Assembly: GCA_965238175.1 (NCBI GenBank)
Contig: CBDEGZ010000003.1
Span: forward strand, 1,888,001-1,952,000
Source of the DNA: Gammaproteobacteria bacterium
GTDB lineage: Bacteria; Pseudomonadota; Gammaproteobacteria; CAJXQU01
DNA length: 64,000 bases
Reading direction: 5' to 3'
Position 1 is the stretch's first letter; each line of letters opens with the position of its first letter. Position numbers and translations under genes: made by a program. Shown here piece after piece: positions 14,289-49,239 of the stretch. The notes under the pieces were generated by a model. It did not search any database and was not told the DNA's origin. It worked only from the letters and a program-made list of their open reading frames with translations.

Positions 14289-14378
14289 CTCTTGTGTTAT
14301 GTTAGTATCTATTTGGGACATAACAAGAGTTTAAGGGAATCTTATGATCAGAATGATCAAGGTTATGGGAGAAAAAAA

Positions 14379-18686: not shown

Positions 18687-18728
18687 TTACTATTCGAAAT
18701 GATAGAACAATAGAACTCTACTAGATCA

Positions 18729-19385: not shown

Positions 19386-20152
19386 AATTGGCTTTAGGTA
19401 TTGAATATGATGGTTCCAACTACCATGGTTGGCAAACGCAATCAGATGTTGAAACTGTTCAGGATTGTTTAGAAAAGGCATTGGGGAAAATTGCCGATCA
19501 TACTGTACGAGTTCATTGTGCAGGAAGAACGGACACAAGGGTACACGGCTTAGGTCAAGTGGTACATTTTGAGACATATGCAAATCGTGATATTAGCTCC
19601 TGGTTATTTGGTACTAATGCGAATTTACCAGATGATGTCAGTGTTCAATGGGTAAAAGAAGTTGATGAAGAATTCCACGCTCGTTTTTCTGCGGAACGTA
19701 GAATTTATCAATACTTTATTTTTAATCAGCCAGCACGATCGGCACTTCTGAATAATAAAGTTGTATGGGAACCTAGATCGCTTTCATTAGAGCACATGCA
19801 AAAGGCTGCAGCATTTTTGGTTGGAACACATGACTTTTCTGCTTATCGTTCTCTTACATGCCAGGCTAACACTCCTGTACGTACAATTCACAACCTCACC
19901 GTTAAAAGAAAGGCAGCATTAATTAAGATTGAAATTGATGCTAATGCTTTTTTACATCATATGGTGCGGAATATTTCTGGTGTTCTGATGACGGTTGGAA
20001 TGGGGCGTGCCGATCCTGATTGGGCTAGAGAAGTACTACAAGGACGAGATAGAACCTTAGGTGGGATCACAGCCCCACCTGAAGGTTTGTATCTTTTGAA
20101 AGTAATATATCCAAGTCATTTTAACCTTCCTTCATCAGGTGTAGAAGTTTAG
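19382..20152 (+). CDS. truA: tRNA pseudouridine(38-40) synthase; C-terminus altered by an IS insertion
   Basis: EYDGSNYHGWQ, AGRTD, FHARFSA, FLHHMVRNI and APPEGLYL motifs; ATG at 19382. Confidence 0.95.
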   Translation: MKLALGIEYDGSNYHGWQTQSDVETVQDCLEKALGKIADHTVRVHCAGRTDTRVHGLGQVVHFETYANRDISSWLFGTNANLPDDVSVQWVKEVDEEFHARFSAERRIYQYFIFNQPARSALLNNKVVWEPRSLSLEHMQKAAAFLVGTHDFSAYRSLTCQANTPVRTIHNLTVKRKAALIKIEIDANAFLHHMVRNISGVLMTVGMGRADPDWAREVLQGRDRTLGGITAPPEGLYLLKVIYPSHFNLPSSGVEV

Positions 20153-21365
20153 ACCCAATCTGACACATCACTAAATCAAGCGGAGCGTAGCGACGCTTGA
20201 TTTAGTGAGAGTTACCCGCTTTGATGTAACTGCAACGTAAACATCAAAACACAAAGAGGTAACTCTCATGATTCATACTAATGACAAAGTTATAAAACAT
20301 AAAGTTGGTCTACTCAATCTCGCTGAAGAACTCGGCAATGTCTCAAAAGCCTGCAAGATGATGGGTTTGTCCAGAGATACATTTTATCGCTACAAAGAAG
20401 CGGCTGATGAAGGCGGTGTAGAAGCCTTGTTTGATCGTAATCGGCGTACCCCAAATCTTAAAAACAGAATCGACCCGGCTATTGAAACCGTTGTGCTCGA
20501 GTATGCACTGGAAGAGCCCGCACATGGTCAAACGCGCACCAGTAACGAGCTGCGCAAACGGGGAACATTTGTCTCACCCAGTGGCGTTCGTTGTATCTGG
20601 CTTCGTCATGGTCTTGCTTGCTTTAAAGATCGCCTGAAGGCATTGTCTGATAAGGTAGCTGGTGAAGGCTTGATCCTCACTGAGTCTCAAGTCGCGGCGA
20701 TGGAACGCAAGAAAGACGACGATGAGGCTTGTGGCGAGATAGAGACGGCACACCCTGGTTATCTTGGCTCGCAAGATACTTACTATGTCGGTACTTTCAA
20801 AGGCATTGGTCGGGTTTATCAACAAACGTTTGTTGATACTTACAGCAAGGTCGCTCACGCGAAACTGTACCCGACTAAAACACCGATTACGGCAGCTGAC
20901 ATGCTCAATGACCGCGTCCTCCCATTCTACGAAGAACAACGTTTGCCTATGTTGCGCATTTTGACAGATAGAGGGACGGAGTATTGTGGGCGAGCTGACC
21001 AGCATGATTATCAGCTTTATATGGCGTTGAACAATATCGAACACACCAAAACCAAGGTCAAATCACCTCAGACGAATGGTATTTGTGAGCGATTCCATAA
21101 GACGATCCTCAATGAGTTTTATCAAGTCGCTTTGCGTAAGAAAATTTACCAATCGATTGATGAACTGCAACTCGACCTTGACGAATGGTTGCTCAAATAC
21201 AATACTCAACGAACTCACCAAGGCAAAATGTGCTGCGGGAGGACGCCGATGGAAACACTCATCGACGGACAAGCTATCTGGAAGGAAAAGTTTGTGAATT
21301 AAACTTAACCTGACAGTCGGTTACTGATAATTGGGTAACTGTCAGATCAAATCTGAATTTCTACA
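20140..21365 (+). mobile_element. IS481-family insertion sequence (1226 bp) with a 7-bp target duplication
   Basis: Ends TGTAGAAGTTTAGACCCAATCTGACA and TGTCAGATCAAATCTGAATTTCTACA (imperfect IR, TGT...ACA); CATCAGG duplicated at 20133-20139 and 21366-21372. Confidence 0.92.
20268..21302 (+). CDS. IS481-family DDE transposase
   Basis: N-terminal HTH (GNVSKACKMMG.SRDTFYR); rve core SQDT, LTDRGTEY, PQTNGICERF. Confidence 0.95.
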   Translation: MIHTNDKVIKHKVGLLNLAEELGNVSKACKMMGLSRDTFYRYKEAADEGGVEALFDRNRRTPNLKNRIDPAIETVVLEYALEEPAHGQTRTSNELRKRGTFVSPSGVRCIWLRHGLACFKDRLKALSDKVAGEGLILTESQVAAMERKKDDDEACGEIETAHPGYLGSQDTYYVGTFKGIGRVYQQTFVDTYSKVAHAKLYPTKTPITAADMLNDRVLPFYEEQRLPMLRILTDRGTEYCGRADQHDYQLYMALNNIEHTKTKVKSPQTNGICERFHKTILNEFYQVALRKKIYQSIDELQLDLDEWLLKYNTQRTHQGKMCCGRTPMETLIDGQAIWKEKFVN

Positions 21366-21392
21366 CATCAGGCGTAATTTGTCCGGTTTTTT

Positions 21393-24071
21393 TTAACTAA
21401 TTTCCCGCTTTAACGCTCTACATGTAGCTTTGTATTGTTGTTTCAATTCTGAAAATTTTTGCTCAATTGAGTTTAGATGATTATTTTCACCAAATAATTC
21501 CATCTCTTTACACAAGTTAGCTAGGTCTTCAGCACCAAGGTTAGCACTGCTGGATTTTAAACTGTGTGCAGAACTACGGATTTTTTTAGCATCTTTTTTA
21601 TTAACAGCCTGTTCTATTTCATTAACGATTTTTTCTGAGTTTTTAAAATATAAATCGATTATTTTATTCAGAATTTTAGGTGCGCCTTCACGTTGCAGTG
21701 CTTTAATATTATTGAGCGTATTTTTATTTAAACACGTTGTGATATTTTGTTGATGGTTTGTATTGATTGCAGTTGTTGTTTCTTTTTCGTCTTCTGGCTC
21801 CGGGATGAAAAGATCGAGATTGGGCATTTCTTTAATTTCTGGTTCTGGCTGAGTTAATTCTAAAACATCTGTTTCCGAAATTAACCCACGTTCAGGTATT
21901 GGAGTTGCAGATTGTTTTTTTATTTCTTTAGTAATAGTTTCTTTTACTTGTGTATCTGTTGAATTAGGCGCAAAAGTTAAACTATCTTGTTTTAACCATT
22001 TTCGCATTTTTTCTATAAGTTGATTTTTGCTAAATGGCTTAGCGAGGTAATCATTCATTCCGACCTCAAAACATGCTTTTTGATCACCGTCCATTGCATT
22101 TGCAGTTAATGCGATAATGGGTAAATCTTTTTTATCAACCATAGCCTCTCTAATAAATTTTGTCGTCATGTAACCATCCAATTCTGGCATCTGACAATCC
22201 ATTAGAATTAAGTCAAAAGACGACTGCTCTTCGCTAAGTGCGGTAATTACTTGTTTGCCGTTATTAACGACGACAACATTACATCCACATTCTTGTAGGA
22301 CGAGTTCGACGAGTTCTTGATTAACAGGGTTATCTTCTGCAACCAGGACATTTACATCAAATATCGCCTTTGGTGAGTTGGGGGAGGTTTCGTTCTTTTG
22401 AGTCGAAATCTTTTTTCGATTTGGAATGCTTAATGTAGCAAGCAAGGCGTTGTGCAGATCAGATTGTCTGATTGGCTTCGTTAAATAAGATTTTATTCCG
22501 ATAGACGTCCAGACCATTGTTTCTTCAAGATCACTTATTGAATTCATAAGAACCAAAGGTGTGTTGACAAGGATCTTGTTACTTCTCATGACTTTGGCCA
22601 GATTGGCCCCGCTAATGTCAGGCATATCATGATCTAACAATGCTAAAGAAAAAGGTTTCGCATTTTTTTGTGCAGACTCCAGTAACGCAACGGCATTTTT
22701 TGCGCTGTCTGATATAACGACTTCCATTCCCCATACTTTTAATTGCTCTGCAATATTTTTGGCGTTCGATTTATTGTGATCAAGGATAAGAACTTTGACT
22801 CCAGCTAAAGTTGTATTGTCAGATAATTGTGATTTATCTCTATCACTTTCTTTCTTTTCTAATAAAGCTGTGAACCAAAATGTAGATCCTACTCCCAGAA
22901 TACTATCAACACCAATATCTCCACCCATCAGATTGCAGTAGTGTTTGCATATGGTTAGCCCCAGGCCTGTTCCTTTGGACGCGTGCTTATTTGTTGATTG
23001 AGATTGCGAGAAAGATCCAAAAATTGATTTTTGATCTTGCTCAGGAATTCCAGGACCAGTGTCTGTTACTTCAAACCGCGGCAAGCCATCTTTTTGATCG
23101 AGACTTACGCTAATAATAATTTCACCCTTGTCAGTAAATTTGATCGCATTACCTATTAAGTTGCTCAGGATTTGTATTAATCTTTGCTTATCACATAGGA
23201 ACAGAGCATGGTCATTTACGGGATAAATACAAATCAGATCCAAGCCTTTGCTACTCGCGGGTTCGGAGAAAGTACTTGCTACTTCTTCCATTAGTAAGCG
23301 GAGGTCTTGAAATTCGGTATTTAATTCGAGTTTTCCTGCCTCAATTTTGGACAAGTTTAGGATATTATTGATTAAATCTAGTAAATTCTTACCGGACTGG
23401 TGAATAAGGTTGGTCAAATGTGATTGTTTAGTACTCAGCTTCGTATTTTGTAAGAGCTCAGTCATGCCCAATATACCCGTCATAGGGGTTCTAATATCAT
23501 GACTCATACTTGCCAGAAATTCTGATTTAGCCTCAACTTTGTGTAAGGCTTCATCATGAGCTTTCTTGAGTGTTTCTAGTATCTTCTCTTGTTTGATACT
23601 TAGAGCAAGTAAGTTATTGAGATCTTTTTTTGTTTGTAGCTCGTTTAATACTTCTTCATGAATAACACTTTGAACTCCAATATACCCGGAAATAGTTTCA
23701 GATGGCTCTTTGATCGGATCGATTGTGGTTCTAATCCAGATGAGCTTAGATTTTAGCTCAATAGCTAATGGAGAGGTTATTTGATGGCGGATACTCCAGT
23801 GAGATCCTTGTTTTAGTGCCTGGAGTAATTTTATGGCTATGTTTTTTGAATGAGGGATTTCACTCATGGAGCGGCCAATAACGCACTCTTCCGTCCAACC
23901 ATTCAGTTTCAGAAATTTTTGATTTGCGTATTCTATTCGACCTTTTGGATCAGTAATGAAGACAGCATTACTGCTATATTCGATAGCAGAATATATTTTA
24001 GCAGATTGAGGTGTAAGCGTTTTAAGCGTTTTAAGCGTTTCTGACGTCGATTGTTCGGCGCTATTATCCAT
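21393..24071 (-). CDS. Cytoplasmic hybrid sensor histidine kinase (PAS-HisKA-HATPase-REC-REC-HPt)
   Basis: KSEFLASMSHDIRTP, NAIKFT, GTGLGL, two receiver domains (LDHDMP, LMDCQMP) and HPt AHSLKSSS; no transmembrane segment. Confidence 0.92.
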   Translation of the reverse strand: MDNSAEQSTSETLKTLKTLTPQSAKIYSAIEYSSNAVFITDPKGRIEYANQKFLKLNGWTEECVIGRSMSEIPHSKNIAIKLLQALKQGSHWSIRHQITSPLAIELKSKLIWIRTTIDPIKEPSETISGYIGVQSVIHEEVLNELQTKKDLNNLLALSIKQEKILETLKKAHDEALHKVEAKSEFLASMSHDIRTPMTGILGMTELLQNTKLSTKQSHLTNLIHQSGKNLLDLINNILNLSKIEAGKLELNTEFQDLRLLMEEVASTFSEPASSKGLDLICIYPVNDHALFLCDKQRLIQILSNLIGNAIKFTDKGEIIISVSLDQKDGLPRFEVTDTGPGIPEQDQKSIFGSFSQSQSTNKHASKGTGLGLTICKHYCNLMGGDIGVDSILGVGSTFWFTALLEKKESDRDKSQLSDNTTLAGVKVLILDHNKSNAKNIAEQLKVWGMEVVISDSAKNAVALLESAQKNAKPFSLALLDHDMPDISGANLAKVMRSNKILVNTPLVLMNSISDLEETMVWTSIGIKSYLTKPIRQSDLHNALLATLSIPNRKKISTQKNETSPNSPKAIFDVNVLVAEDNPVNQELVELVLQECGCNVVVVNNGKQVITALSEEQSSFDLILMDCQMPELDGYMTTKFIREAMVDKKDLPIIALTANAMDGDQKACFEVGMNDYLAKPFSKNQLIEKMRKWLKQDSLTFAPNSTDTQVKETITKEIKKQSATPIPERGLISETDVLELTQPEPEIKEMPNLDLFIPEPEDEKETTTAINTNHQQNITTCLNKNTLNNIKALQREGAPKILNKIIDLYFKNSEKIVNEIEQAVNKKDAKKIRSSAHSLKSSSANLGAEDLANLCKEMELFGENNHLNSIEQKFSELKQQYKATCRALKREIS

Positions 24072-37388: not shown

Positions 37389-37441
37389 GGTTGAGCTATC
37401 TCACGATTTATTTTTATACTTTGATAAACAATACCTTTAAC

Positions 37442-37984
37442 TTACCAATGTAAGTCATCTGGAATTTGAAAATCTGCGTAGGGATCACTTTCATCCTCAC
37501 CAGCGTCTTTTTTATCATTCAGAAGAATAAATACACGCGGATTCTTTTGAGCAACTTTTTCAGCGACTTCGGATGGAACGACACTATACTGATTTTTGAA
37601 TTTAACGATGGCTAGTCTTCCGTTACTGATTTTATCTCTAACAGAACTTGAAATGTATATGGTTTTAATCTTTTTCTGATCAGTAAAGTTAAATGATTCA
37701 CCCTCTTTCTCATCTGCAAGGCGATGAGTGTTGATCAATTGTTGAATTTGAGCGTTAACGGCTTGTTGATTAGCTTTCTCTTTTTGTTGCAGGTTGAGTT
37801 TTCTATCTTCTTCTTTCTTCTTTAACAAAGCCTTTTGCGCATTTATTTTATTTTGATCTTGAACGGGCTGTTTCGTATTGCGCTGTTGCTTATTATTTTT
37901 AGACTTTTCTTTTTGTAATTTCTGGGCTCGTTGTTTATCAACCAAACCCATTTTGAGCATTTGTTCTTGTAGTGATTTTGCCAT
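37442..37984 (-). CDS. DUF2058 (YaiL-like) protein
   Basis: MAKSLQEQMLKMGLVD start and DPYADFQIPDDLHW end. Confidence 0.88.
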   Translation of the reverse strand: MAKSLQEQMLKMGLVDKQRAQKLQKEKSKNNKQQRNTKQPVQDQNKINAQKALLKKKEEDRKLNLQQKEKANQQAVNAQIQQLINTHRLADEKEGESFNFTDQKKIKTIYISSSVRDKISNGRLAIVKFKNQYSVVPSEVAEKVAQKNPRVFILLNDKKDAGEDESDPYADFQIPDDLHW

Positions 37985-38185
37985 TTTTTTCAGTTCAACT
38001 ATATTTTGTTTAATTTTATAGTATCTGGTCAAAATAGAATACTTATTTTTGATTTCATCAGTATGAAATAATTATTGACTATCCTAACTAACTTATTCAG
38101 AAAATAAATTTTGGAATCAATATGTTACCGTTTAAGAAAATGATATTGTTTGTAGCAGTGGTCTTTCATTTAATATTAATGTCCA

Positions 38186-38299
38186 ATTGACGCAAAACAT
38201 AGTCCTAATCGTAAACCACTACTTGTGGTTACTAACGAAGTAAGTGGCACAACAGCAATTTACAAAATCAAAGTCCGATCAAAACATAAACATCATTAA
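38186..38299 (+). pseudogene. C-terminal remnant of an alkaline-phosphatase-like (choice-of-anchor I type) beta-propeller protein
   Basis: IDAKHSPNRKPLLVVTNEVSGTTAIYKIK...*, with an in-frame stop just upstream at 38177 and no start codon. Confidence 0.55.
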
Positions 38300-38340
38300 T
38301 GGTTTAACGACCTTAAGAACTAATTTGATGCAAGTAAAAT

Positions 38341-38361
38341 CAGGGTAACTCGCTTACCCTG
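38341..38361. terminator. Hairpin / possible terminator
   Basis: CAGGGTAA-ctcgc-TTACCCTG. Confidence 0.4.
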
Positions 38362-38544
38362 GCTTGTATAATATTTTTAATTCACATTAATACCCTTAGT
38401 CTGGAGAGACCTCGTGAAATAATACCTGCTTTACATGAACGCTATTTCTTAACAAACTAAGCTAAAACAAAAACCATATTCATTTCTTAAATAGAAACGG
38501 AAGTTAGCTGGTTTGAAACTTCTGCCTCATAATAAGGATAAAGC

Positions 38545-40407
38545 TTGAGTAAACTTACCAGATCCTTCTATATTGCATTCATTGCTGCCTTGACGGGATG
38601 TCTTCTGCTGACGAGTACTTTAGGTGAGCGTCTGGAAGAAAACCTGGGTGAAATTTTTCTGTATAAGTTACGAGGAACTGTTTCGCCACCACCTGATGTG
38701 GCGATGGTTTATATTGATGGTAATACGGCTACTCAACTGGGTTTATCAGAAGAGTTAAAAAAATGGCCGCGTTCTGTTCATGCTTGTATTTTGAAGAAAC
38801 TTAAAGCCGCTGGTGCAAGTGTTGTTGTCTTTGACATTGCTTTCCTCGAGCCTGAAGTGACAATGACACACCCAGAGGAGATCTGTTCCGAAATACCTGC
38901 AGGAAACCATGCGGATGATGCCTTTGTTGATGCTGTTAAAGACTTTGGTAACGTTATACTTCTGGAAAAGCTGGAACAAGTGAACTATCGGACACCTGAT
39001 CAAACGCTTTCTACCTCTCAATCGATCAAACCGTTTGAAAAGTTAGCTGAAGCAGCCGTAGCCACAGGGCCATTTGTCTTGCCAGATGAAACATTGCGAC
39101 TTGCTACATTTTGGGCTTATCTTTGTGATCAACAATTGCTCAATAGAGTTGGTGGCTGTGCTAATAAAATAGCAACTCTTCCTATGTTAGCCCTACAGCA
39201 CTCTGAGGTTGAAAATAAACCAATAGATCTTCAACTTAATAAAAGTACTGACAGCATGAGGCTGAATTTTTATGGTCCGCCACGAACAATTCCTTGTCGT
39301 TCTTATCAGTCAATACTTGATCCAATGTTGCGAGATGAAGCGTGTGGCGATGTGGACTTTTCGGGGAAAGTGGTTTTTATTGGTATAGCAGAATACGATC
39401 GGCCTGCTCAGACTGATAGTTACTATACGGTTTTTTCAGGAAATGATGGTATTGATCTTGTCGGCGTTGAAGTGATGGCAACGGCATTTGCAAATCTTTT
39501 GACGGAGACCACGCTCAATAAACCCAACACAATTTATAGCCTGCTGATTATTGTTCTTGTGGCTATTATTCTAGGGATTCTTGTCTCTTTCTTTTCGTTA
39601 CTAACGGCTCTCGGTATTGGATCAGTCATTTTTATAACTTATCTGGCAATTGCTTATGTCGCTTTTACAAAATACTATCTGATACTGCCTGTCATGACTC
39701 CAATACTAATCCAGTCAACAGTAGCAATCATAATAGCCAGTTTCATACATTACCGTTATGAGAAAATTCGTCGAGAAGCGTTGCAACAGATCACCGGATA
39801 CTACATTTCAGAAAATGAGACTGATCAATCAACTTATGTATTGCCACCAACGGGACTAGTTTATGGTGTCTGTATGGCAACAGATATGGAGAATTCAACC
39901 GTACTTGTGGAAATGCTTGGGCCATCGAGATTTGCAGAGCTGATGGATTTATACTATTCCGAGTTGGCTTTAATAATAAAAAAACATGACGGCATATTAT
40001 TAGATATCGCCGGGGATGGAACAATGTCCGCCTGGCTCTTTAATAAAGAAGAATTTCCTAACGTTCAGACAAAAGCATGCAATGCTGCTTTAGAAATTAT
40101 CGCTGTGCAGGAACATTTGACAGTTAGTTTGAATAGTCCAATCCAAACACGGATCGGTTTGCATGCAGGGGAATTTACTTTGAATTTTGTCCGCATTGGC
40201 ATGCGTTACTTTTATAAAGGTACTGGCAATACGCTACATATCGCTTCACGAATTGAACAACTGAATAAAAAGTTGAACACAAAAATACTTCTGTCAGAGT
40301 CTATAGAAAAGAGCGTGGATAAAATCGCGCTGCAGCCTCATGGTTTATTTACGATTAAAGGGTTAAGCAAAAAAGTTAAAATATTTGAAATGTCAGAAAC
40401 AAAATAA
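38545..40407 (+). CDS. CHASE2-domain class III nucleotide cyclase (receptor cyclase)
   Basis: N-terminal TM; CHASE2 motifs WPRS.HA, VVVFDIAF, LNFYGP, GKVVFIG, GVEV.AT; three TMs; cyclase core TDMENST, AGDG, RIGLHAG, ASRIE, IKG. Confidence 0.9.
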   Translation: MSKLTRSFYIAFIAALTGCLLLTSTLGERLEENLGEIFLYKLRGTVSPPPDVAMVYIDGNTATQLGLSEELKKWPRSVHACILKKLKAAGASVVVFDIAFLEPEVTMTHPEEICSEIPAGNHADDAFVDAVKDFGNVILLEKLEQVNYRTPDQTLSTSQSIKPFEKLAEAAVATGPFVLPDETLRLATFWAYLCDQQLLNRVGGCANKIATLPMLALQHSEVENKPIDLQLNKSTDSMRLNFYGPPRTIPCRSYQSILDPMLRDEACGDVDFSGKVVFIGIAEYDRPAQTDSYYTVFSGNDGIDLVGVEVMATAFANLLTETTLNKPNTIYSLLIIVLVAIILGILVSFFSLLTALGIGSVIFITYLAIAYVAFTKYYLILPVMTPILIQSTVAIIIASFIHYRYEKIRREALQQITGYYISENETDQSTYVLPPTGLVYGVCMATDMENSTVLVEMLGPSRFAELMDLYYSELALIIKKHDGILLDIAGDGTMSAWLFNKEEFPNVQTKACNAALEIIAVQEHLTVSLNSPIQTRIGLHAGEFTLNFVRIGMRYFYKGTGNTLHIASRIEQLNKKLNTKILLSESIEKSVDKIALQPHGLFTIKGLSKKVKIFEMSETK

Positions 40408-40589
40408 ATGTAAATCTATCTAATACCCTTAGGCAGCTTGCGTGAAAATAGGATACTATTTAAGGTTCCGGAGACACTCGTGAGAAACTGTAAAACAACG
40501 TTTTAATAATACTAACAATAAATACTCATTAGAAAGTGTACCGCTGTTATAAGCAAGTCTAAGGTAACCGGATAAATAAAGGGGATGGC

Positions 40590-43500
40590 ATGAAATGTAA
40601 ATATGGGTGGAGTGTTTCTACAATTCTGCTTGTTTTTTATTCGTGTATTTTCTCGCAAACAGTTGTTGCACAAACTAATTGCCCACGAGATCGAGCTCCC
40701 ATTGCCGAAGTTATATCTGTTCAAGGTATGCTTACACTAAATGGTGAGCAACTTTCAGTAAATGATCTGATCTGCCCAGGTCAAATAGTGCTTAATACCG
40801 AATCAAATAGTCGAGCTGCAATTCGCATTATAGCGACCGGCGTGAAAATCCGGCTTGATCAAAATACTGAACTACGTATGGATGCGTCGATTAGTTCAAC
40901 TTCAAGTAAAAATGCGGCAGACGATAACCAGAAATCATTTGTTGAACTTGTAACAGGTGCTATTAAAGCATTCACTCGCAAGCCTTATAAACTTGATGTA
41001 AGAACGCCTTACGTAACAGCGGGTGTAGAAGGGACAGAATTTATAGTTGAAGCTTTTGATGATGGCAGAGAAATTACCGTACATGTGTTTGAAGGGCATG
41101 TGCGTATGCTCTATGCATATAATGACCAACGTGCCGATCTGGATATTTTGGCTAATGAAGCCGGTTATGCAAGAAAAAATCAACCACCAGAGAAAGTTGA
41201 AAAACTCAAAATAAAGTCACGCGATCAAGTTGACTGGGCACTCTACTATCCAGCATTTTCAGGAATGCCAGCTCTAAATAAGGTAAATCAGCTACTGGCT
41301 GCAGGGCGGGTTGATGCAGCTAAAAAGCATCTCGATGCTTCTAACCTGCAAGATCAGAAATTAATATTGGATACAATAGTCAAAATTTCCAAAGGAAAAA
41401 GTCATCAAATAATCAATCAAGCCTCCTGGGTTAAAAAATTAGAAGCCACGTCTATAACACGACTGCTGCTTTCTTATGCCTACCAGGCAGATTTGCAACT
41501 GAACAAAGCGCTTGAAACACTGGAGAACACTAAAATCAAGGACGCGCTGATCTGGGCAAGAATAGCCGAACTGCGTCTTGCTAAAGGGGAGATAGAAGGA
41601 TCTGTTGATGCCGCACAACAAACTCCCATTAATTTTCAATTAAACAATTGCCTTTCTGAGGCTATCAGCAACCCGCCCAATTATATTGCTAGAACGCTCA
41701 CGGTCAGAGGTTTTACGAAACTTGCGCAAAGAGATGTGGAAAATGCAAAGGTGGAATTTGAATGCGCTATCCTGTTTGCCTCAGAGGATCCACTGCCCAG
41801 ATTTGGGCTTGGTTTAGCAAAGATCCGACAAGGACACACGCAACAAGGACGACATGATATTGAAACGGCGGCCTTACTTGATCCGACCAATGCACTTATT
41901 CGTAGTTATTTAGGCAAGGCATTTTTTGAAGAGAATAGGGGAATGCGTAATACCACATCAACAGATGAATGTGCCCAACAAACAGGGAATGATGCTGATC
42001 TGGCCGATCAACAATTGTGTATCGCTAAACAATTAGATCCCAACGATCCAACGCCGTGGTTCTATCATGCAATAAAAAAACAAACTGAAAATAAACCGGT
42101 GGAAGCCTTAAAAGATCTGCAAAAAGCCATCGACAAAAATCACAATCGAGCCGTTTATCGATCGGGATTTTTATTGGACAGCGATCTGGCTTCGCGCAGC
42201 GCCAGTCAGGGTCGGATCTACCGTGACTTAAAATTTGAACAGCTTGGACTGTTGCAAGGCTGGAAATCTGTTAATACCGATCATGGTGATTATTCGGGCC
42301 ACCGATTACTTGCAGATACCTATTCTGCATTACCGCGCCACGAAACTGCCCGTGTCAATGAACTCTACCAATCGCAATTATTACAGCCGCTAAATGTAAC
42401 GCCAGTGCAGTCGCAGCTAGCCGAAAAAAACCTGTCTATCTTGAATAATTCTGGTCCTTCAGAAGTATCATTTAACGAATTTAATCCTTTATTTACCCAA
42501 AATGGTTTGTCCATGCAGAGTTCCGCTGTGGTCGGTGGCAATAGTACTTGGGGTGAGGATATTACTATCGCTGGTCTGTATGACAACTGGTCAATTAACC
42601 TGGGCCAATTTCATTTTGAAACCGCTGGGTTTCATGACAATAATGGGTTGGAAAAAGATGTGTTAAGTGCAACGCTGCAATACAGCCCAGATCAAAACAC
42701 CTCGTTTTTAGCGGAACTAAGAACGAGCGAAAGGGAACAGGGCGATCTAGCGCTTTTATTTGATAGCAATAATTTTAGATCTAATGCCGCTCTAAAAGAA
42801 CAAATTCATTTACTTAAGACAGGTTTCCATCATCAATTTTCACCTCAATCTGAAATTATTGGTTCATTTATTTATCAAGTTGCAAAGATAAACGTACGGG
42901 ATGAACCTTTTTTTGAACTTGATGCGGATCTTGGCGGATACACTACTGAGTTACAGCATCTATACCAGGGGCAACACGGGCGTTTGACCAGCGGTGTTAG
43001 ATATTCTCATCGTGATCAGAAAGAGTCGGTGCAACTGTCTTTTTCGCTGCCTGTTCCTCCATTCAATGTTCAAAGTGATTTTACTAGAAAACATATCATT
43101 GAGCAGGCCAGTCTATACTTATATTCATATACTGATCTAAGTAAGAACGTAAGTATCACACTCGGTGGCAGCTTTGATTCTCTTAATGGACGCGCTACAA
43201 ACAAGGATTTATTCAATCCAAAGCTCGGATTAATTTGGGAACCCATATCAAGCACAACGTTTCGCGCTGCCGTATTCAAAACCTTGCAAGGGCCAGCCTT
43301 TTCACGCCAAGATCTCCAACCCTCTATAGAACCAACGCAAGTAGCCGGTTTTAATCAGTTCTTTTTTGATGACGTTGAAGGTGATGTTAATTGGCGATAT
43401 GCGATTGCCCTGGATCATGAGTTTTCCCCAAACTTATATTCAGGGTTAGAGCTTTCAAAAAGAACACGCGATAGACCTTTTCTCACATTAGGTGTCTCTG

Positions 43501-43961
43501 AACAACTTGAAACCATTGATTGGAAAGAATATTCTGCACGATTTTATACCTATTGGACTCCAGCTTCTGGTCTGACTTTAACTGCAACCTACCAATTTGA
43601 TAAAAGGGATAATGGAGATAATGGTTTAAATGAAGCTGCTTTGGAAATGCAAATTCATCGACTCCCACTGAAACTTAATTATTTTCATCCGAACGGTATT
43701 AGTAGTGGGATAACCGCAAGCTATGTTTATGAAAAAGGTATCTTTCAAGATGCAAATGCAAACACATTTTCTAGGGGTAAGGATAGCTTTTGGGTGGTAG
43801 ATGCGGCCTTAAGCTATCGACTGCCGAAACGTTATGGAATTATTTCATTGAGTGTCGATAATCTATTCGACCAGAAATTTCAGTTTCAGGATATTGATCC
43901 GGAAAATATAGAGCTAAAACCAGAGAGAATGAGCTTAATTAAATTTACACTTTCTTTCTAA
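40590..43961 (+). CDS. Outer-membrane receptor-like protein: FecR + TPR + TonB-dependent-type beta-barrel (NsrA-like)
   Basis: Signal peptide; FecR motif VRTPYVTAGVEGTEF; TPR segments (LDPTNALIRSYLGKA, LDPNDPTPWFY); C-terminal VDAALSYRLP...VDNLFD and terminal Phe. Confidence 0.85.
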   Translation: MKCKYGWSVSTILLVFYSCIFSQTVVAQTNCPRDRAPIAEVISVQGMLTLNGEQLSVNDLICPGQIVLNTESNSRAAIRIIATGVKIRLDQNTELRMDASISSTSSKNAADDNQKSFVELVTGAIKAFTRKPYKLDVRTPYVTAGVEGTEFIVEAFDDGREITVHVFEGHVRMLYAYNDQRADLDILANEAGYARKNQPPEKVEKLKIKSRDQVDWALYYPAFSGMPALNKVNQLLAAGRVDAAKKHLDASNLQDQKLILDTIVKISKGKSHQIINQASWVKKLEATSITRLLLSYAYQADLQLNKALETLENTKIKDALIWARIAELRLAKGEIEGSVDAAQQTPINFQLNNCLSEAISNPPNYIARTLTVRGFTKLAQRDVENAKVEFECAILFASEDPLPRFGLGLAKIRQGHTQQGRHDIETAALLDPTNALIRSYLGKAFFEENRGMRNTTSTDECAQQTGNDADLADQQLCIAKQLDPNDPTPWFYHAIKKQTENKPVEALKDLQKAIDKNHNRAVYRSGFLLDSDLASRSASQGRIYRDLKFEQLGLLQGWKSVNTDHGDYSGHRLLADTYSALPRHETARVNELYQSQLLQPLNVTPVQSQLAEKNLSILNNSGPSEVSFNEFNPLFTQNGLSMQSSAVVGGNSTWGEDITIAGLYDNWSINLGQFHFETAGFHDNNGLEKDVLSATLQYSPDQNTSFLAELRTSEREQGDLALLFDSNNFRSNAALKEQIHLLKTGFHHQFSPQSEIIGSFIYQVAKINVRDEPFFELDADLGGYTTELQHLYQGQHGRLTSGVRYSHRDQKESVQLSFSLPVPPFNVQSDFTRKHIIEQASLYLYSYTDLSKNVSITLGGSFDSLNGRATNKDLFNPKLGLIWEPISSTTFRAAVFKTLQGPAFSRQDLQPSIEPTQVAGFNQFFFDDVEGDVNWRYAIALDHEFSPNLYSGLELSKRTRDRPFLTLGVSEQLETIDWKEYSARFYTYWTPASGLTLTATYQFDKRDNGDNGLNEAALEMQIHRLPLKLNYFHPNGISSGITASYVYEKGIFQDANANTFSRGKDSFWVVDAALSYRLPKRYGIISLSVDNLFDQKFQFQDIDPENIELKPERMSLIKFTLSF

Positions 43962-44026
43962 ATTTAACGCTGATCGTAGCAAAACCAGTCTTACCCATCA
44001 GTTTTTTTAAACTAAATTGCACACAT

Positions 44027-44042
44027 TGTGTTTTTTCTCACA
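44027..44042 (+). promoter_or_regulatory. CRP/FNR-type box 1
   Basis: TGTGT-TTTTTC-TCACA; -10-like TAGTAT at 44064-44069. Confidence 0.65.
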
Positions 44043-44142
44043 TCTTTATTTTCATCAATCCTTTAGTATTTATTGGTGAGCCAGTTAATCGTTGCTCATC
44101 CCGATAAAAATCAATTTATTAAAATATAAAGGGGATAAACCT

Positions 44143-44388
44143 ATGTTAAATCGTAAACTTTTAGTATCAATCATCAGTTTTTCAGTTTTCTCACTCTGTA
44201 GTGTTATGCAAACTGCGTATGCATCTGCTGCTGATAGTTATAGTATTAATGACAATATAAATGTGGAGTTTGTGGAAAACCTCACGTCATCAGGGAGGCT
44301 GCAAAGTATGCAAGGAGATGTTATTTCTCACGGTAGACATTGCTACTTTATTATCTTCGGAAATGAGCTGTTTGTGTATCACTGTTGA
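44143..44388 (+). CDS. Small secreted protein (81 aa) with a C-terminal C-x13-C
   Basis: SD GGGGA; signal peptide ending AYA; ends HCYFIIFGNELFVYHC. Confidence 0.7.
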   Translation: MLNRKLLVSIISFSVFSLCSVMQTAYASAADSYSINDNINVEFVENLTSSGRLQSMQGDVISHGRHCYFIIFGNELFVYHC

Positions 44389-44517
44389 TCTTTAGAATTT
44401 ACAGTGAGTGTTCGAATGTGCATATATAAATATTAATTAAATAGCTAGTAAGTATGCTTTTTACCAAAGAGTTAAGCTTTATCATTTACTGTGTGGTGTC
44501 AGGCTTACTCAGTTCAT

Positions 44518-44558
44518 AGCAGATAACCAGCATCACTTTTGGTTATCTGCTTGTTTTT
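44518..44558 (+). terminator. Intrinsic terminator
   Basis: 12-bp stem AGCAGATAACCA/TGGTTATCTGCT followed by a T-rich run. Confidence 0.65.
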
Positions 44559-44618
44559 TAAAAATCTTACTGGATAATCATTCACTATTTTTAGTGTAAT
44601 CAAGGAAGGATTTCTGTT

Positions 44619-45332
44619 TTGGATGACTTCAATTTCATTCCTGTTACTGCGGATTTATTATTAGGTATAGATTTGTTCCGAGATCTGCCCGCAGGTGATC
44701 GAAGTCTAATTGCACAGCATTGTGTCGGTAAGGAATATGCTGCACACAAATTAGTTTTAACCCAAAAAGATTTGTCCGGAGATGTTTATTTCGTTATCAG
44801 CGGAAGAGTGCGTGTTACTTATTTCTCTATATCGGGTAAAGAAGTTACTTTTCGTGAACAAAATGCGGGTGAGATGTTTGGTGAATTGTCGGCAATTGAT
44901 GCTAAACCACGTTCCACACAGGTAATAACAGGTTCAGATGCTATTCTTGCCTCAATGAGTTCTACTGATTTTCAGGCGCTGCTACAGGAGAATTCCAAAC
45001 TTGCCTGCAAAGTTATGCAGCATTTAACCAGCCTTGTTAGATTATTGTCAGAACGCATTGTCGAATTCTCAGCACTTGCTGTTAAAAATCGGATCCATGC
45101 GGAGTTATTGTGGATCGCCTTAAAAGGGAAGGTCGTCGATGGTCGTGTGATCATAAAACCGGTACCAACGCATGCAGATATATCAACCCGTATCAGTTCG
45201 CACCGTGAAGCCGTTACTCGTGAATTGAAAAGGCTTGAACAGAAGGGTCTGCTTGAGCGGCATCATGACAAATGGATTATCTTAGATCTTGAACGATTAC
45301 AAACTATGGTTCTGGATGTTTTGGGTGTTTAA
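44619..45332 (+). CDS. Crp/Fnr-family regulator with a cNMP-binding domain
   Basis: GEMFGELSAID..PRST cNMP-binding motif; HTH THADI..RI...REAVTREL. Confidence 0.92.
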   Translation: MDDFNFIPVTADLLLGIDLFRDLPAGDRSLIAQHCVGKEYAAHKLVLTQKDLSGDVYFVISGRVRVTYFSISGKEVTFREQNAGEMFGELSAIDAKPRSTQVITGSDAILASMSSTDFQALLQENSKLACKVMQHLTSLVRLLSERIVEFSALAVKNRIHAELLWIALKGKVVDGRVIIKPVPTHADISTRISSHREAVTRELKRLEQKGLLERHHDKWIILDLERLQTMVLDVLGV

Positions 45333-45425
45333 TTTATAAAGCCCCCAATAAAAATCAGCATTAATTGCTTTAAACAACTGTTTTACTTAATTCTTCTAAT
45401 ATTATTACAACTATTTTCCTCGAAT

Positions 45426-45441
45426 TGTGAGAAAAACCACA
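45426..45441 (+). promoter_or_regulatory. CRP/FNR-type box 2
   Basis: TGTGA-GAAAAA-CCACA; -10-like TTTAAT at 45463-45468; 15/16 identical to the reverse complement of box 1. Confidence 0.65.
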
Positions 45442-45519
45442 GCACAAATTCCTGGATCAGGTTTTAATTAGTCGTGTTAGAAAGAAACGTTATCTATTAA
45501 ACGACATGAGGAAAATCAA

Positions 45520-46629
45520 ATGAGTTTAAAGTCATTAAATAGAACAAAAACCAAACCTATTTTTACTCTACCGCCCTATAAAGTTGAACAAATTATTTCA
45601 TCTACTTCAGAAATAATAGATTGGGGTCTTGAAATGCTTTCGGTACCTGATAGTTGGAGAGATGCTCAAGGTGCAGGCGTTAAAGTTGCTGTTTTAGATA
45701 CAGGTGCGGATTTATACCATCCGGATTTAAGAAGTAGCGTTGTAAAAGCTGAAGATTTTACGAATAGCGCTGTCGGTGCGCAGGATATTGATGGGCATGG
45801 TACTCATGTGGCAGGAACCATAGCAGCTAAAAAGAATCGGCACGGTGTCGTTGGTGTTGCTCCAGAGGCCGAACTTCTTATCGCAAAGGTGTTAGGTGAT
45901 TTTGGATACGGGACAGAAGAGGCCGTTGCAAACGGCATAAACTGGGCGATAGAAAATGATGCAGATATTATTTCTATGAGTTTGGCCAGTAGCCTATATA
46001 GCAAAAAAGTTCATGCTGCAGTCAAAGCAGCATACAAAGTTAACAAGACAATTATATGTACTGCCAGTAACGAAGGTTCAAAACTGGAAACAATGACCTA
46101 TCCGGGAAAATTTGAAGAAACCATTGCCGTAGGTACCATTGATAGTTCTAAAAAGGTTTCCGGTTATTCAAAGCGAGAATCACAGGTAGACATCGTCGCG
46201 CCAGGTGATCAAGTTCTTTCAACCTATCCAACAGGGGGTTATGCTGAACTAAGCGGTTCCTCTATGACAACACCTCTTGTGTCAGGCATTATCGCTTTAA
46301 TGTTTTCTAAATTTCGACGATTTAGTGGGGCGAATCCTCTAGAAGATCGAGAAGAACTTATTCGGCATTTACGAGAAACAGCTACAAACTTAGGTCCGGA
46401 CAGATTTGATCCTGGTTACGGTTATGGATTAATCAACCCTGAAGATTTGCTCTCTGCGCAATCAAGATTCCTTTTGAATTTAATACCTTCAGATGATCTA
46501 ACAAAGTCAGGTAAGAAGAAACTTAGTAAATTTATGAACAGAGGAAAAACAAAGCCATCTGTCAATAATTCTGCACACCTACAAGATGGGTATGGAGAAA
46601 TAAGAGGTGGTGTCAGGATAAAGATATAA
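45520..46629 (+). CDS. Subtilisin-family (S8) serine peptidase without a signal peptide
   Basis: Catalytic triad motifs VAVLDTG, GHGTHVAG and SGSSMTTP; C-terminal GYGYG. Confidence 0.92.
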   Translation: MSLKSLNRTKTKPIFTLPPYKVEQIISSTSEIIDWGLEMLSVPDSWRDAQGAGVKVAVLDTGADLYHPDLRSSVVKAEDFTNSAVGAQDIDGHGTHVAGTIAAKKNRHGVVGVAPEAELLIAKVLGDFGYGTEEAVANGINWAIENDADIISMSLASSLYSKKVHAAVKAAYKVNKTIICTASNEGSKLETMTYPGKFEETIAVGTIDSSKKVSGYSKRESQVDIVAPGDQVLSTYPTGGYAELSGSSMTTPLVSGIIALMFSKFRRFSGANPLEDREELIRHLRETATNLGPDRFDPGYGYGLINPEDLLSAQSRFLLNLIPSDDLTKSGKKKLSKFMNRGKTKPSVNNSAHLQDGYGEIRGGVRIKI

Positions 46630-46804
46630 CCAACCTGCGCTTGATGTATGGGCTCCACGACTACTACCGAGAAGTAGCGTGGAGTGACCAAGCTAAAGAT
46701 CATAAATAAGCGTAATGTGCTATATCTTTAGATCTTGCAAAACGTGTTATTCAAATAAGTAAAGTTAGTCCTGCTTTTTAAGCTCAGGCTCTAATGAAAT
46801 AGAT

Positions 46805-48346
46805 CTACTTGCTCTGAACAGCCCAGTTAAGATCAGATAATGTATTTACAGTTGATCCTCCAGCCTCTAATAGAATAGGGCCGCTCATAAGGTACATATG
46901 ATTTTGGCCAGTCACATTATTTCGCCAGAATATATCCTGTTTCCCATCGCCATTGTAATCACCAATAGCCCGAATATCCCAGGCTAGTGAGGTGAACTCA
47001 ACGTGTTGGCCAGGTGCACCTGCTGTGCTATTTGAAATATTGGGGCCATTCATAAGATACAACCAAACCCGACCATTAGTGCTATGCCTCCATAGAATAT
47101 CGCCTTTACCATCAGCATCAAAATCACCAACGCCTTGTATATTCCAGTTCTCACTGGTGAATGCGACATGCTCACCTGTGCCTGATCCATTAATGATATT
47201 ATTGCCATTCATCGAATAAAGCCACACACGTCGATTGACGTTATTGCGCCAGAGGACATCGTCTCTTCCATCGTTATTGAAATCTGCAATACCGGAAACT
47301 ACCCAATTTTTATCAGGAATGGTATTTACCTGGAGAGTTACATTCAGGTTAGTGCCGTTCAAAAAACTAATCCGGTTCTCACCATCATCGTGATGCCAAA
47401 AAATATCGTTATTTCCGTCGCCGTTAAAATCTCCTGTCCCAGCGATTTTCCATTTGGTGTCGGTAAAAGGAGGGATGGTCAGATCAATTCCTCTTATTAC
47501 GTTTACGCCGTTCATAATAGTTATCTGGTTTGAGCCATTATTGGTGTTTCGCCAGAGAAGGTCAGAGCTGCCATCTTTGTCGAAATCACTGTTTCCAACT
47601 ACTACCCAAGTGGATTCAGCAGAAAACAGGCTTACATCTGCACTTGATGCGACAACACTACTATTCATCAAATAAATCCTGTTATTGTTCGTAATAACAT
47701 TACGCCAGAAAATATCGGACTTTCCATCATTATTAAAATCATTTTTGTCTGCGAGATTGTTTATTCTTGGGGCATTGAGTTCAGGGTAGAGTACTTTAAT
47801 ACCTAGAAGATCATCGTTTTGGATACTTCGGATTTCATCGTTGTAAAATGACTGTAAGATAGAGTTCGTAGTATCTTCGTGATCCAAACCTAGAGTATGG
47901 CCTAGCTCATGTAATGCCACTCTGTAAAAATCTGTGGTTCCATTTGATGATGCTCCATCGAAAACACCCCATTGAACACTGGAATTATTAAAAACAATAT
48001 CTGTTTCTACTATTGAGCCATTTGACGAAAGCAATCCGGTAATGGCCAATGTACCGCGACCCCAATTTGCACCACAATAAGTGTTGGAAAACCCAACACC
48101 GTTTCTATTGTCGTCAGAACATGGGTTTTGATAAGTATTAATTGTTTGTAAATTAAAGCCAGCAGTATTATTCCAATTCGCCATCGCAGACTGGAAAGAA
48201 GAAGAAAACTGGCCGATATCTACATAGAATACGATATTAGTTGTAGCCCATTTAGCCGGTGGGCTAAAGATAAACGAATAAGCAAAAAGCGAGGAGTTAT
48301 ACGTAAGCATCAGTATGGTAATGAAAATGTTTTTTTTGATATTCAT
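46805..48346 (-). CDS. Secreted matrixin (M10-like) zinc metalloprotease with FG-GAP/VCBS repeats
   Basis: Signal peptide; HELGHTLGLDH; repeated DF(N/D).DG..DI.WR motifs. Confidence 0.88.
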   Translation of the reverse strand: MNIKKNIFITILMLTYNSSLFAYSFIFSPPAKWATTNIVFYVDIGQFSSSFQSAMANWNNTAGFNLQTINTYQNPCSDDNRNGVGFSNTYCGANWGRGTLAITGLLSSNGSIVETDIVFNNSSVQWGVFDGASSNGTTDFYRVALHELGHTLGLDHEDTTNSILQSFYNDEIRSIQNDDLLGIKVLYPELNAPRINNLADKNDFNNDGKSDIFWRNVITNNNRIYLMNSSVVASSADVSLFSAESTWVVVGNSDFDKDGSSDLLWRNTNNGSNQITIMNGVNVIRGIDLTIPPFTDTKWKIAGTGDFNGDGNNDIFWHHDDGENRISFLNGTNLNVTLQVNTIPDKNWVVSGIADFNNDGRDDVLWRNNVNRRVWLYSMNGNNIINGSGTGEHVAFTSENWNIQGVGDFDADGKGDILWRHSTNGRVWLYLMNGPNISNSTAGAPGQHVEFTSLAWDIRAIGDYNGDGKQDIFWRNNVTGQNHMYLMSGPILLEAGGSTVNTLSDLNWAVQSK

Positions 48347-48348
48347 CA

Positions 48349-48996
48349 CTACCAACCTATTTCTTTAAGTTTTTGCTTGAACTCGCCTGGTGTCATGCCG
48401 TTTGGAGTAGCGTTATCTGTGGATGTCGGATTTGATGCAAGACTAGCGGCTTTAATAGTTCTAAGTCCAGCGGCGGTACCATCACTTATTAAGTCTTTAT
48501 TCGGTATATTAGATTCAACACTCTCTACTTGCTTGCCTTCCGCTGTATTGACTCGTTCTACCCCCTTTTGATCGGTTTTAATAATATAGTGACCTTGTGT
48601 CCAACCAAACAAGGGATTAATCAAATATTCATTCAGAGACTCTACGAAATAGATCCCCTTTTCACCGGGAGCTGGATATTTCATGTCGGGTATGTGAACC
48701 TTTTTACCATTATATTCGCCACCGACGAATCGTAGCTCTATTGTGTTACCTTGATCAGTACCTTTAACCACGTCATTTATCTGAAAGGTGATGTCTGTAA
48801 CAATCCAGTGGTTGTTAGCATCCATCCCCGTTTCGACGGCGATCACTTCACCTTCAAACACAAACTCTGCTTCGCTTAGAAGTTCGTTAACGTTGAATGA
48901 GCGAACAGTAGTAGCCTTTGAAGTACTAGCAAATAAGAGTGTGCACAGTAAAAAGAATAATTTTAAAAGTTTTGCTGGAGTTGTGATTTTGATCAT
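48349..48996 (-). CDS. Secreted protein upstream of the matrixin (prodomain-like partner)
   Basis: Signal peptide; L...A..VF.G.V, I.T...F.I..V.KG, GG and G..QG.Y pattern. Confidence 0.6.
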   Translation of the reverse strand: MIKITTPAKLLKLFFLLCTLLFASTSKATTVRSFNVNELLSEAEFVFEGEVIAVETGMDANNHWIVTDITFQINDVVKGTDQGNTIELRFVGGEYNGKKVHIPDMKYPAPGEKGIYFVESLNEYLINPLFGWTQGHYIIKTDQKGVERVNTAEGKQVESVESNIPNKDLISDGTAAGLRTIKAASLASNPTSTDNATPNGMTPGEFKQKLKEIGW

Positions 48997-49239
48997 ATCA
49001 ATTATTTCAATGCCCTTTTAATAATGAATCCATGCTTATGACTGCATGAATTATAATACATTTCCAGGGGACACGGGTATAGAATGTTTAAAACCTTGTC
49101 CCATATTAATAATTTAGGACTCGGGTTTCTTATAAAAGTTTTATGTGGTTTTGATAAATACATCATAAATCAGGTGAAATTCAATTTGAGACATAAGGGC
49201 ATGAGCAATTAATTTCATGATTTTAAAAGAGGATGTTTA

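Follow-up and report, generated by a model that had tools for sequence, protein, structure and literature searches.

The stretch of DNA analysed here, referred to below as the window, comprises 64,000 nt of a gammaproteobacterial contig (CBDEGZ010000003.1, positions 1,888,001 to 1,952,000). Our subject is a locus of five plus-strand genes within it. In order, these encode a membrane-bound class III nucleotide cyclase with a CHASE2 sensor domain, a large FecR-TPR-beta-barrel protein, a small protein with a predicted export signal, a Crp-type transcription factor dependent on cyclic nucleoside monophosphate (cNMP), and a peptidase of family S8 (Table 1). An earlier reading made from the letters alone, here called the sequence-only reading, had listed the same five co-oriented genes and had taken them for a self-contained circuit, with a receptor signalling through the cyclase to the Crp-type regulator and two target genes. 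The gene list itself is borne out by the list of open reading frames (ORFs) together with Pfam and NCBIfam scans. Hydrophobic stretches were called throughout by a heuristic and not by a signal-peptide predictor.

Table 1. Genes and candidate regulatory features of the locus, in window coordinates
Feature	Position	Strand	Basis and remarks
CHASE2 class III cyclase, CyaK-like	38545..40407	+	Pfam, alignments, BLASTP; 620 aa
FecR-TPR-beta-barrel protein, NsrA-like	40590..43961	+	Pfam, NCBIfam, hhalign, BLASTP; 1123 aa
CRP-type box 1, TGTGT-N6-TCACA	44027..44042	.	pattern search
-10-like hexamer TAGTAT	44064..44069	+	4/6 match to TATAAT; box 1 then at -41.5
Small exported protein (predicted)	44143..44388	+	ORF and hydrophobic N-terminus; 81 aa
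Intrinsic-terminator-like hairpin, 13 pairs, then T run	44518..44551	+	
Crp-type cNMP-dependent transcription factor, TTG start	44619..45332	+	Pfam; 237 aa
CRP-type box 2, TGTGA-N6-CCACA	45426..45441	.	pattern search
-10-like hexamer TTTAAT	45463..45468	+	5/6 match; box 2 then at -41.5
Intracellular-subtilisin-type S8 peptidase	45520..46629	+	Pfam, solved-structure matches; 369 aa
3' end remnant of choice-of-anchor I family protein gene	38186..38272	+	tblastn; context, outside the circuit

The cyclase is recognised by Pfam matches to CHASE2 (E 3.2e-26) and Guanylate_cyc (E 6.7e-10). Its hydrophobic stretches, at residues 4-22 and at three places between 324 and 396, give it the layout of the Sinorhizobium meliloti cyclase CyaK, in which CHASE2 lies between membrane segments and is followed by a class III domain with two metal-binding Asp residues. 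In the barrel protein, the Pfam scan found FecR at residues 68-172 (E 3e-15), a weak TPR match at about 390-450 and a TonB_dep_Rec_b-barrel match at 651-907 (E 3.4e-14), but no Plug domain. The protein also has an N-terminal hydrophobic stretch (residues 8-26) and ends in Phe. The protein thus shows the structural marks of the NsrA-type group: an export-signal-like N-terminus with FecR, a TPR region with a barrel, and an adjoining CHASE2 cyclase gene.

A profile built from 31 relatives of the window barrel protein gave a full-length alignment with NsrA of S. meliloti (964 columns at 19% identity; hhalign probability 99.85%, E 8.6e-31). BLASTP between the two proteins gave three collinear segments, corresponding to the FecR, TPR and barrel regions, and a Pfam scan of NsrA itself returned FecR plus TPR. 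A tblastn search of plasmids with the barrel protein found nothing at 1e-5; the cyclase search of plasmids reached cyaK on pSymB of S. meliloti, where the gene abuts nsrA (annotated as a 'FecR domain-containing protein', 1197 aa; locus L081). The window cyclase is 23% identical to CyaK over 572 aa (BLASTP, E 4e-17). These alignments make the two core proteins genuine, though remote, homologues of NsrA and CyaK, with the order of the genes reversed. A tree was built from 62 full-length barrel proteins, 20 shorter rows being left out. In it the window protein pairs with that of locus L001 (support 100) among gammaproteobacterial rows of the Pseudomonadota, and the branch leading to NsrA is very long. 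P0002 and P0003, which at 72% and 54% identity are the barrel protein's closest relatives, are both encoded on metagenome contigs.

Relatives of the barrel protein are abundant. Among 8000 candidates scored, 2868 reached E<=1e-5, and a scan of genomes confirmed at least 576 among 593 candidate stretches. The locus statistics given below cover the best 80 of these at least 576 confirmed relatives (loci L001-L080). The loci span Gammaproteobacteria (Methylococcales, Chromatiaceae and others), Desulfobacterales, Nitrospirota, Brocadia, Deferrimicrobia and more, and relatives of the barrel protein carry many TPR families. When the window proteins were compared with the ORFs of the loci by phmmer, the cyclase was found in 60 of the 80, a Crp-like protein in 27 and an S8 peptidase in 2. 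In 61 loci at least 2.5 kb of upstream DNA allowed the position of the cyclase gene to be assessed, and in 51 of them it immediately precedes the barrel gene in the same orientation. The other ten divide into four with a cyclase elsewhere nearby, one artefact of overlapping ORFs and five with no cyclase.

Within 5 kb on either side, the only families recurring in more than five loci were the barrel protein, the cyclase and a single BLAST cluster present in 35 loci. A Pfam scan of 42 members of this cluster showed mostly cNMP-binding and GAF proteins. A Crp-type regulator is adjacent to the pair in 19 of 60 loci, and sigma54 activators with a cNMP or GAF domain adjoin it in eight. Other readers beside the pair include cNMP-SulP, cNMP-kinase and cNMP-glutaminase proteins and stand-alone cNMP-binding proteins. 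Three eukaryote-type protein kinases also fall in this cluster, only one of them with a cNMP domain. A separate cluster, found in four loci, is represented by a protein resembling class II phosphodiesterases. In terms of gene neighbourhood, the cyclase/barrel pair is behaving as a portable input module, apparently wired to varied cyclic-nucleotide readers, in keeping with the Campylobacterota cluster and the FecR-CHASE2 pairings of two-component systems considered below.

These surveys alter the standing of the locus. The sequence-only reading had called it analogous to the S. meliloti NsrA-CyaK-Clr relay. Remote homology of both core proteins sustains the comparison, but since the pair occurs in hundreds of genomes across many phyla, the window locus is no isolated analogue. 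The genes had also been expected to keep together in other genomes; this holds for the cyclase and barrel genes (51/61) and in part for the Crp-type gene (19/60), but not for the S8 gene (2/80).

The catalytic pocket of the cyclase was examined by aligning it to solved cyclases, 60 relatives and CyaK. In class III enzymes, a Lys together with Asp, Thr or Ser reads adenine, and an Asn and an Arg stabilise the transition state. Both metal-binding Asp columns are kept in the window enzyme and in 59 of the 60 relatives, and the window enzyme also keeps the Arg. The first substrate-defining position, that of the Lys, is occupied in the clade by Asp (36/60) or Asn (13/60), and the second by Arg in 45 of the 60; the window has Lys at the second position, and the adenine-reading pair of Lys plus Asp, Thr or Ser is absent. 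CyaK keeps the canonical Lys, Ser and Asn. The window and L001 cyclases (620 and 632 aa) are also short for the group, whose median is about 750 aa: about 75 residues of CHASE2 are missing from each, as is a C-terminal extension of about 60. This extension, found in most cyclases of the 60 loci, carries a conserved W..A..F pattern and a DGPS-x-FY motif and matches no Pfam family.

The regulator combines cNMP_binding with HTH_Crp_2 (Pfam). It is not an orthologue of the global CRP, scoring 65.5 bits against the NCBIfam equivalog NF008732, whose cut-off is 266. Among solved bacterial proteins it matches Clr best (7pza, E 2.1e-14); for E. coli CAP the E-value is about 1e-12. In the alignment it keeps the G-E...R-S cNMP motif and the R-E-x-V-x-R recognition helix, as in E. 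coli CAP. The same helix occurs in 11 of the 19 Crp-like proteins adjacent to the cassette, or 15 when variants with I or K are counted. In CAP, R-E-x-x-x-R reads TGTGA, and a class II CRP-dependent promoter has its box centred at -41.5.

Two CRP-type boxes accompany the two genes that the sequence-only reading had proposed as targets. Box 1 is centred 108.5 bp before the ATG of the small gene and box 2 is centred 86.5 bp before that of the S8 gene. Each has one mismatch to TGTGA-N6-TCACA, and they are near-identical 16-mers, box 1 being taken as its reverse complement, with the likeness extending into the spacer. The shared 16-mer has two matches in the 64-kb window, both in these promoter regions, and across the seven intergenic regions of the locus the two boxes are the only sites with two mismatches or fewer. 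In both promoters a -10-like hexamer starts 29.5 bp past the box centre, which would place the box at the class II position if transcription starts 7 nt after the hexamer, as we assumed. The spacing is 29.5-30.5 bp in four promoters: those of the window small gene, the S8 gene and both copies of the small gene at L001. L001, whose core proteins are 51-55% identical to those of the window, has perfect boxes ahead of its small gene and of the degenerate second copy. As far as promoter sequence can tell, the proposal that both genes are targets is supported, each carrying a CRP-type box at class II distance. A Clr-type binding site was considered and rejected, because the window boxes do not fit GTNNCNNNNGNNAC. 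A third consensus-like box (48982-48997, one mismatch), which overlaps the start codon of a 215-aa ORF, was treated as chance because the count of consensus sites in the window is at expectation.

Some features of other loci bear on these promoters. At L001, an insertion of about 150 bp resembling a miniature inverted-repeat transposable element (MITE), with inverted ends and a duplicated ctgtcagatac, lies between the CRP-box promoter and the small gene (L001:13469-13630). The degenerate second promoter and gene copy (14149-14532) are without it. From about 15400 to 23396, L001 contains CA-type microsatellites and eukaryote-like frames and looks like a chimeric assembly of a metagenome-assembled genome, so the downstream context of this closest relative is unusable. 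Perfect TGTGA-N6-TCACA sites also occur between the cyclase and barrel genes (L011:9762; L061:9708 and 9731) and upstream of the pair (L024:5772). These boxes are hints that the sensor genes themselves may be under CRP-type control in some genomes.

The small gene lies in an ORF open from a TTG at 44092, with a ribosome-binding site at the ATG at 44143. Its 81-aa product has a hydrophobic stretch at residues 4-22 and a C-terminal motif H-x2-H-C-x12-H-C, and matches no Pfam or NCBIfam family. A homologue is encoded at the same position in L001 (BLASTP, E 1e-5). A terminator-like hairpin closes the small-gene unit of the window, and a similar hairpin follows the L001 gene. No other homologue came up in sequence searches. 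A word-based search returned nothing but the query, phmmer had no hit among the locus ORFs, and a two-sequence profile returned only the window and L001 proteins and the degenerate L001 copy. Among 1.84 billion representatives, only the window and L001 small proteins were found, plus a 605-aa match. The latter was read as spurious, since it involves only the hydrophobic N-terminal part of the profile (positions 11-40, in seven stretches).

Among the 64 loci with at least 700 bp past the barrel gene, most have a small same-strand ORF in this slot that ends in a hairpin-like motif of the form Cys ... Gly ... Cys. A profile built on 19 C-termini selected by hand hit 24 ORFs at E<1e-3, including five non-seeds, and all 24 lie directly downstream of the barrel gene on the same strand; nothing else fell below E 0.1 across the six-frame ORFs of all loci and the window. 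Iteration gave 22 ORFs, so that 22-24 of the 64 loci carry a member. The proteins (for example, L055:13308-13523, L079:8962-9177 and L052:13353-13586) are about 60-130 aa long; their N-termini show a hairpin-like pattern, their C-termini carry (S/N)P-x-C ... G ... C, and no Pfam family matches them. For three pairs dN/dS was 0.10-0.22, a sign of purifying selection which indicates that these ORFs are real genes. Four of the 22 proteins exceed the hydrophobicity threshold for a signal-like N-terminus, and one more narrowly misses it.

The window small gene occupies the same slot, directly downstream of the barrel gene and on the same strand. A loose regular expression for the C-terminus, written after the sequences had been viewed, matched 56 of 11,721 ORFs, 20 of them in the downstream slot and the window ORF included. 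Position, size and motif together suggest that the window protein may belong to this Cys-hairpin family. The sequence-only reading had made it a plain output of the circuit; because it sits in the slot of the cassette's small gene, it is more likely to be a component or a feedback element. No account of the small gene or of the cyclase pocket turned up in the literature, where no search was aimed at either.

The last gene encodes a Peptidase_S8 protein (Pfam, E 9.9e-54) whose best solved matches are intracellular serine proteases (7xr8, E 3.5e-58; 7y6m, 6f9m, 2x8j and 2wv7). The alignment to these begins at residue 15-16 and covers the N-terminal inhibitory motif, and the catalytic Asp60, His93 and Ser248 fall in invariant columns. 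No hydrophobic stretch, and hence no export signal, was seen. Intracellular subtilisins are described in the excerpted text of PMC6220982 as carrying a LIPY/F motif of the pattern [LVI]-[IFLV]-P-[YFH]. The window protein has LPPY at the aligned place, which misfits at the second position, and both Pro residues are conserved in at least 90% of 14 relatives. These share an EPIF-x-LPPYKVE start and an extra C-terminal tail; the closest, from cyanobacteria, Bacteroidota, Pirellulales and Desulfonema, are at most 55% identical. Because of the matches to intracellular proteases and the lack of a hydrophobic N-terminus, the enzyme is taken to be cytoplasmic, and probably self-inhibited when made. The sequence-only reading had seen the peptidase as an output belonging to the module, which does not agree with its intracellular type or with its scarcity at the other loci.

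Taken together, the locus is best read as a lineage-specific version of a widespread cassette for envelope-to-cytoplasm cyclic-nucleotide sensing, with a relay to two promoters, a reading to which we would give a probability of about 0.55. Following the homology to NsrA, the outer-membrane barrel protein would perceive a cue at the surface or in the envelope. Its periplasmic FecR/TPR part would then act on the CHASE2 domain of the cyclase, as the near-obligate pairing of the genes and the S. meliloti genetics lead us to infer. The cyclase, which keeps the metal-binding Asp pair and the Arg within a non-canonical pocket, would make a cyclic nucleotide. The adjoining Crp-type regulator would bind this nucleotide and activate two class II-type promoters by occupying their boxes. 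The first would drive a monocistronic gene for a small exported protein rich in Cys and His, which would most likely feed back on the sensor from the periplasm, given that its gene occupies the cassette's small-third-gene slot. From the second would come a self-inhibited protease of the intracellular-subtilisin type, which would remodel cytoplasmic proteins.

A number of observations weigh against this reading. In the window cyclase the substrate Lys position is Asp, and where 58 of the 60 relatives have the transition-state Asn, the window and L001 enzymes alone have His, leaving both catalysis and product uncertain. With these departures at the substrate-defining and transition-state positions, the product is not readable from the sequence, and cyclic AMP cannot be assumed. 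As to box statistics, the 16-mer was derived from its own two sites, and 5 of 100 shuffles reached two matches; the window holds 3 consensus sites against 2.83 expected, a chance-level count, so that the case for the boxes lies in where they stand and not in their number; and the 19 Crp-adjacent loci show no enrichment of boxes, with 0 against 0.79 expected at one mismatch or fewer and 11 against 11.08 at two or fewer. The boxes fit the general CRP consensus, so that a global CRP could be their regulator. L001 has no Crp or S8 gene in its usable DNA, which excludes the downstream part. S8 genes are not syntenic, with two weak hits in the 80 loci: that of L010 has a prodomain of the secreted type, and that of L065 is a weak hit on the opposite strand. 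As to the small protein, the Cys-hairpin profile gives no hit to the window ORF at E<=10, and at L001 its only row (E 2.5) is an unrelated minus-strand frame. hhalign sets the window/L001 hairpins and those of the family in register, at E 0.086 and a probability of 0.7%, and BLASTP between the L001 and L010 small proteins gives E 0.045, within the range of shuffled sequences.

A bolder form of the cassette reading, which we hold only tentatively and consider rather doubtful as a whole, makes the cassette one of three genes, distributed across many phyla: a CHASE2 cyclase, an NsrA-like receptor and a fast-evolving Cys-hairpin mini-protein absent from database descriptions. The clade pocket, Asp/Asn ... 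Glu-x-Arg, fits neither adenylate nor guanylate cyclases, and the enzymes may make another cyclic nucleotide. The cassette would feed different cNMP readers, among them Crp, sigma54 activators, kinases and transporters. In the lineage of the window, the mini-protein would have come under the pathway's own Crp-type regulator, forming an autoregulatory loop.

The main competitor of the sensing-cassette reading, unlikely in our view, is that the boxes belong to a global CRP regulon of the catabolite type, that the Crp-type gene has other targets and that there is no closed circuit. It would account for boxes that match the general consensus with one mismatch each, and for the Crp-adjacent loci without box enrichment. 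It would also account for the perfect boxes of L001, where no Crp-type gene lies in the usable DNA, and of L011, L024 and L061, where none is adjacent (at L024 there is one 5.3 kb downstream). It is less easily squared with a local regulator that has the TGTGA-reading R-E-x-V-x-R helix of CAP, with boxes 1 and 2 being alike even in the spacer, or with the finding that a cNMP reader is the sole recurrent neighbour of the pair. The term self-contained, which the sequence-only reading had applied to the circuit, is not borne out: a global CRP encoded elsewhere could bind both boxes, since they fit its consensus, and there is no phosphodiesterase in the locus.

Improbable, by comparison, is the idea of a cyclase reduced to a pseudo-enzyme with impaired catalysis, in a locus that is itself a remnant, decaying or rewired, amid gene debris. 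The substitutions of His for the transition-state Asn and of Asp for the substrate Lys would be expected of such an enzyme, as would the loss of the CHASE2 segment and C-terminal extension from the window and L001 proteins, and there is debris at hand in the gene remnant upstream and an IS481 transposase gene at 20268-21302. Yet none of the five frames is broken, the enzyme retains its two metal-binding Asp residues and the Arg, and the His and the short form are common to two genomes whose cyclases are 56% identical, which speaks for a maintained variant.

TonB-dependent uptake, surface signalling in the manner of FecA/FecR and a Pycsar-like anti-phage system are together very improbable: the barrel match and FecR domain recall the first two, but a transporter was rejected for want of a Plug domain and no sigma-factor family is found among the neighbouring ORFs scanned with Pfam, and the anti-phage reading was rejected because the weak PADLOC hits (PycC, 33 bits; the cNMP-binding part of PycTIR, 49.5 bits; a subtilase model) cover single shared domains only. 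Pycsar consists of a cytosolic cyclase and a cNMP-binding effector with a killing domain, whereas here the CHASE2 cyclase is membrane-bound and the cNMP reader bears a helix-turn-helix and no killing domain.

The DNA around the locus is, we presume from the gene order, that of an ordinary gammaproteobacterial chromosome, with leuB, asd, FimV/HubP, truA, comEC, lpxK, kdsB, sbcB and RapA genes elsewhere in the window. Upstream of the cyclase gene, the 512-bp spacer 38033-38544 contains short frames only. In one of these (38180-38299), residues 3-31 match the C-terminal end of choice-of-anchor I proteins (tblastn against plasmids, best 76% identity over 29 aa, E 3e-6), although the frame has no Pfam match; a second (38092-38190) has no match. 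The gene remnants that had been noticed just upstream are thus borne out for at least one piece. An Rfam scan of 37400-47000 gave no RNA family at E<=1. Downstream, on the minus strand at 46805-48996, a gene for a matrixin (M10) metalloprotease with FG-GAP repeats converges on the S8 gene and is preceded by the 215-aa ORF, which has no family. At 1871-10532 lies a gene set resembling an aryl-polyene or flexirubin-type lipid cluster, with thioesterase, LolA2-like, RND-like transporter, flavin halogenase-/reductase-like, two ketosynthase and FabG2 genes. The IS481-family transposase gene is flanked by truA and a gene for a hybrid histidine kinase, and its region has no near match among plasmids (megablast).

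The cassette is very widespread and almost unstudied, and the window locus is less singular than it was first read to be. To our knowledge, the only CHASE2 pathway worked out is NsrA-CyaK-Clr, which is tied to the rhizobium-legume symbiosis. The receptor-cyclase pair emerges here as a portable module of hundreds of free-living bacteria, often with a reader encoded alongside. In the window lineage, two clear candidate target promoters adjoin the module, offering a compact set of parts for tests in a heterologous host. The unannotated small third gene, the non-canonical cyclase pocket and the variety of readers are leads that reach beyond this one genome. CHASE2 is itself described, in the part of PMC5192318 drawn on here, as a common bacterial sensor domain without a known ligand.

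Several known systems can be set beside the locus. The S8 peptidase is like the intracellular subtilisins of Bacillus and Planococcus, which in the excerpts of PMC6220982 have no signal peptide and a short N-terminal extension with a Pro-Tyr motif; it differs in having LPPY and a conserved C-terminal tail. The regulator and its presumed sites resemble E. coli CAP in the type of box, the -41.5 position and the aligned G-E...R-S and R-E-x-x-x-R motifs. In the Burkholderia 'BiofilmReg' operon and a P. aeruginosa pair, a FecR periplasmic protein is encoded beside a CHASE2 sensor, which points to a general FecR-CHASE2 partnership. There, however, the output is a histidine kinase and response regulator, and the FecR protein is described as a LysM protein bound to peptidoglycan, with no barrel (PMC5192318, in part).

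A closer counterpart is the cluster of Campylobacterota, which, going by the portion of PMC9239204 used, holds a CHASE2 adenylate cyclase, a phosphodiesterase, a FecR-domain protein of the outer membrane plus a TPR protein, and shows signs of horizontal spread. It shares with the window the association of a CHASE2 cyclase with a FecR-domain outer-membrane protein, and with four of the analysed loci a phosphodiesterase-like gene. Compared by description only, it differs in that TPR is a separate protein, and Crp, small and S8 genes are not described in that portion.

The nearest relation remains the relay of S. meliloti, in which, according to the excerpted accounts, NsrA acts through CyaK (with CyaD1/D2) to Clr (PMC7529298, PMC13001267, PMC5498481, PMC10127613), and genetics show that NsrA is needed for the cyclase to perceive the external signal (PMC7529298). 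In both organisms, a gene for an outer-membrane FecR-TPR-barrel protein adjoins that for a CHASE2 class III cyclase. Both have a regulator of the Crp family that uses cNMP, and with it target genes for exported proteins, presumed in the window; the Clr targets SMc02178, SMc02177 and SMb20495 are exported proteins of unknown function in the part of PMC5498481 used. The differences are considerable. The order is nsrA-cyaK in S. meliloti and cyclase-barrel in the window, identity is 19-23%, and the canonical Lys and Asn of CyaK are replaced in the window enzyme by Asp and His. The helix with which Clr reads its site, GTNNCNNNNGNNAC, is R-P-K-V-N-R; that of the window regulator is R-E-x-V-x-R, and its presumed sites are boxes of the TGTGA type. 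The nsrA-cyaK locus has no small third gene, and in the window the regulator and its presumed targets share one locus with the sensor pair.

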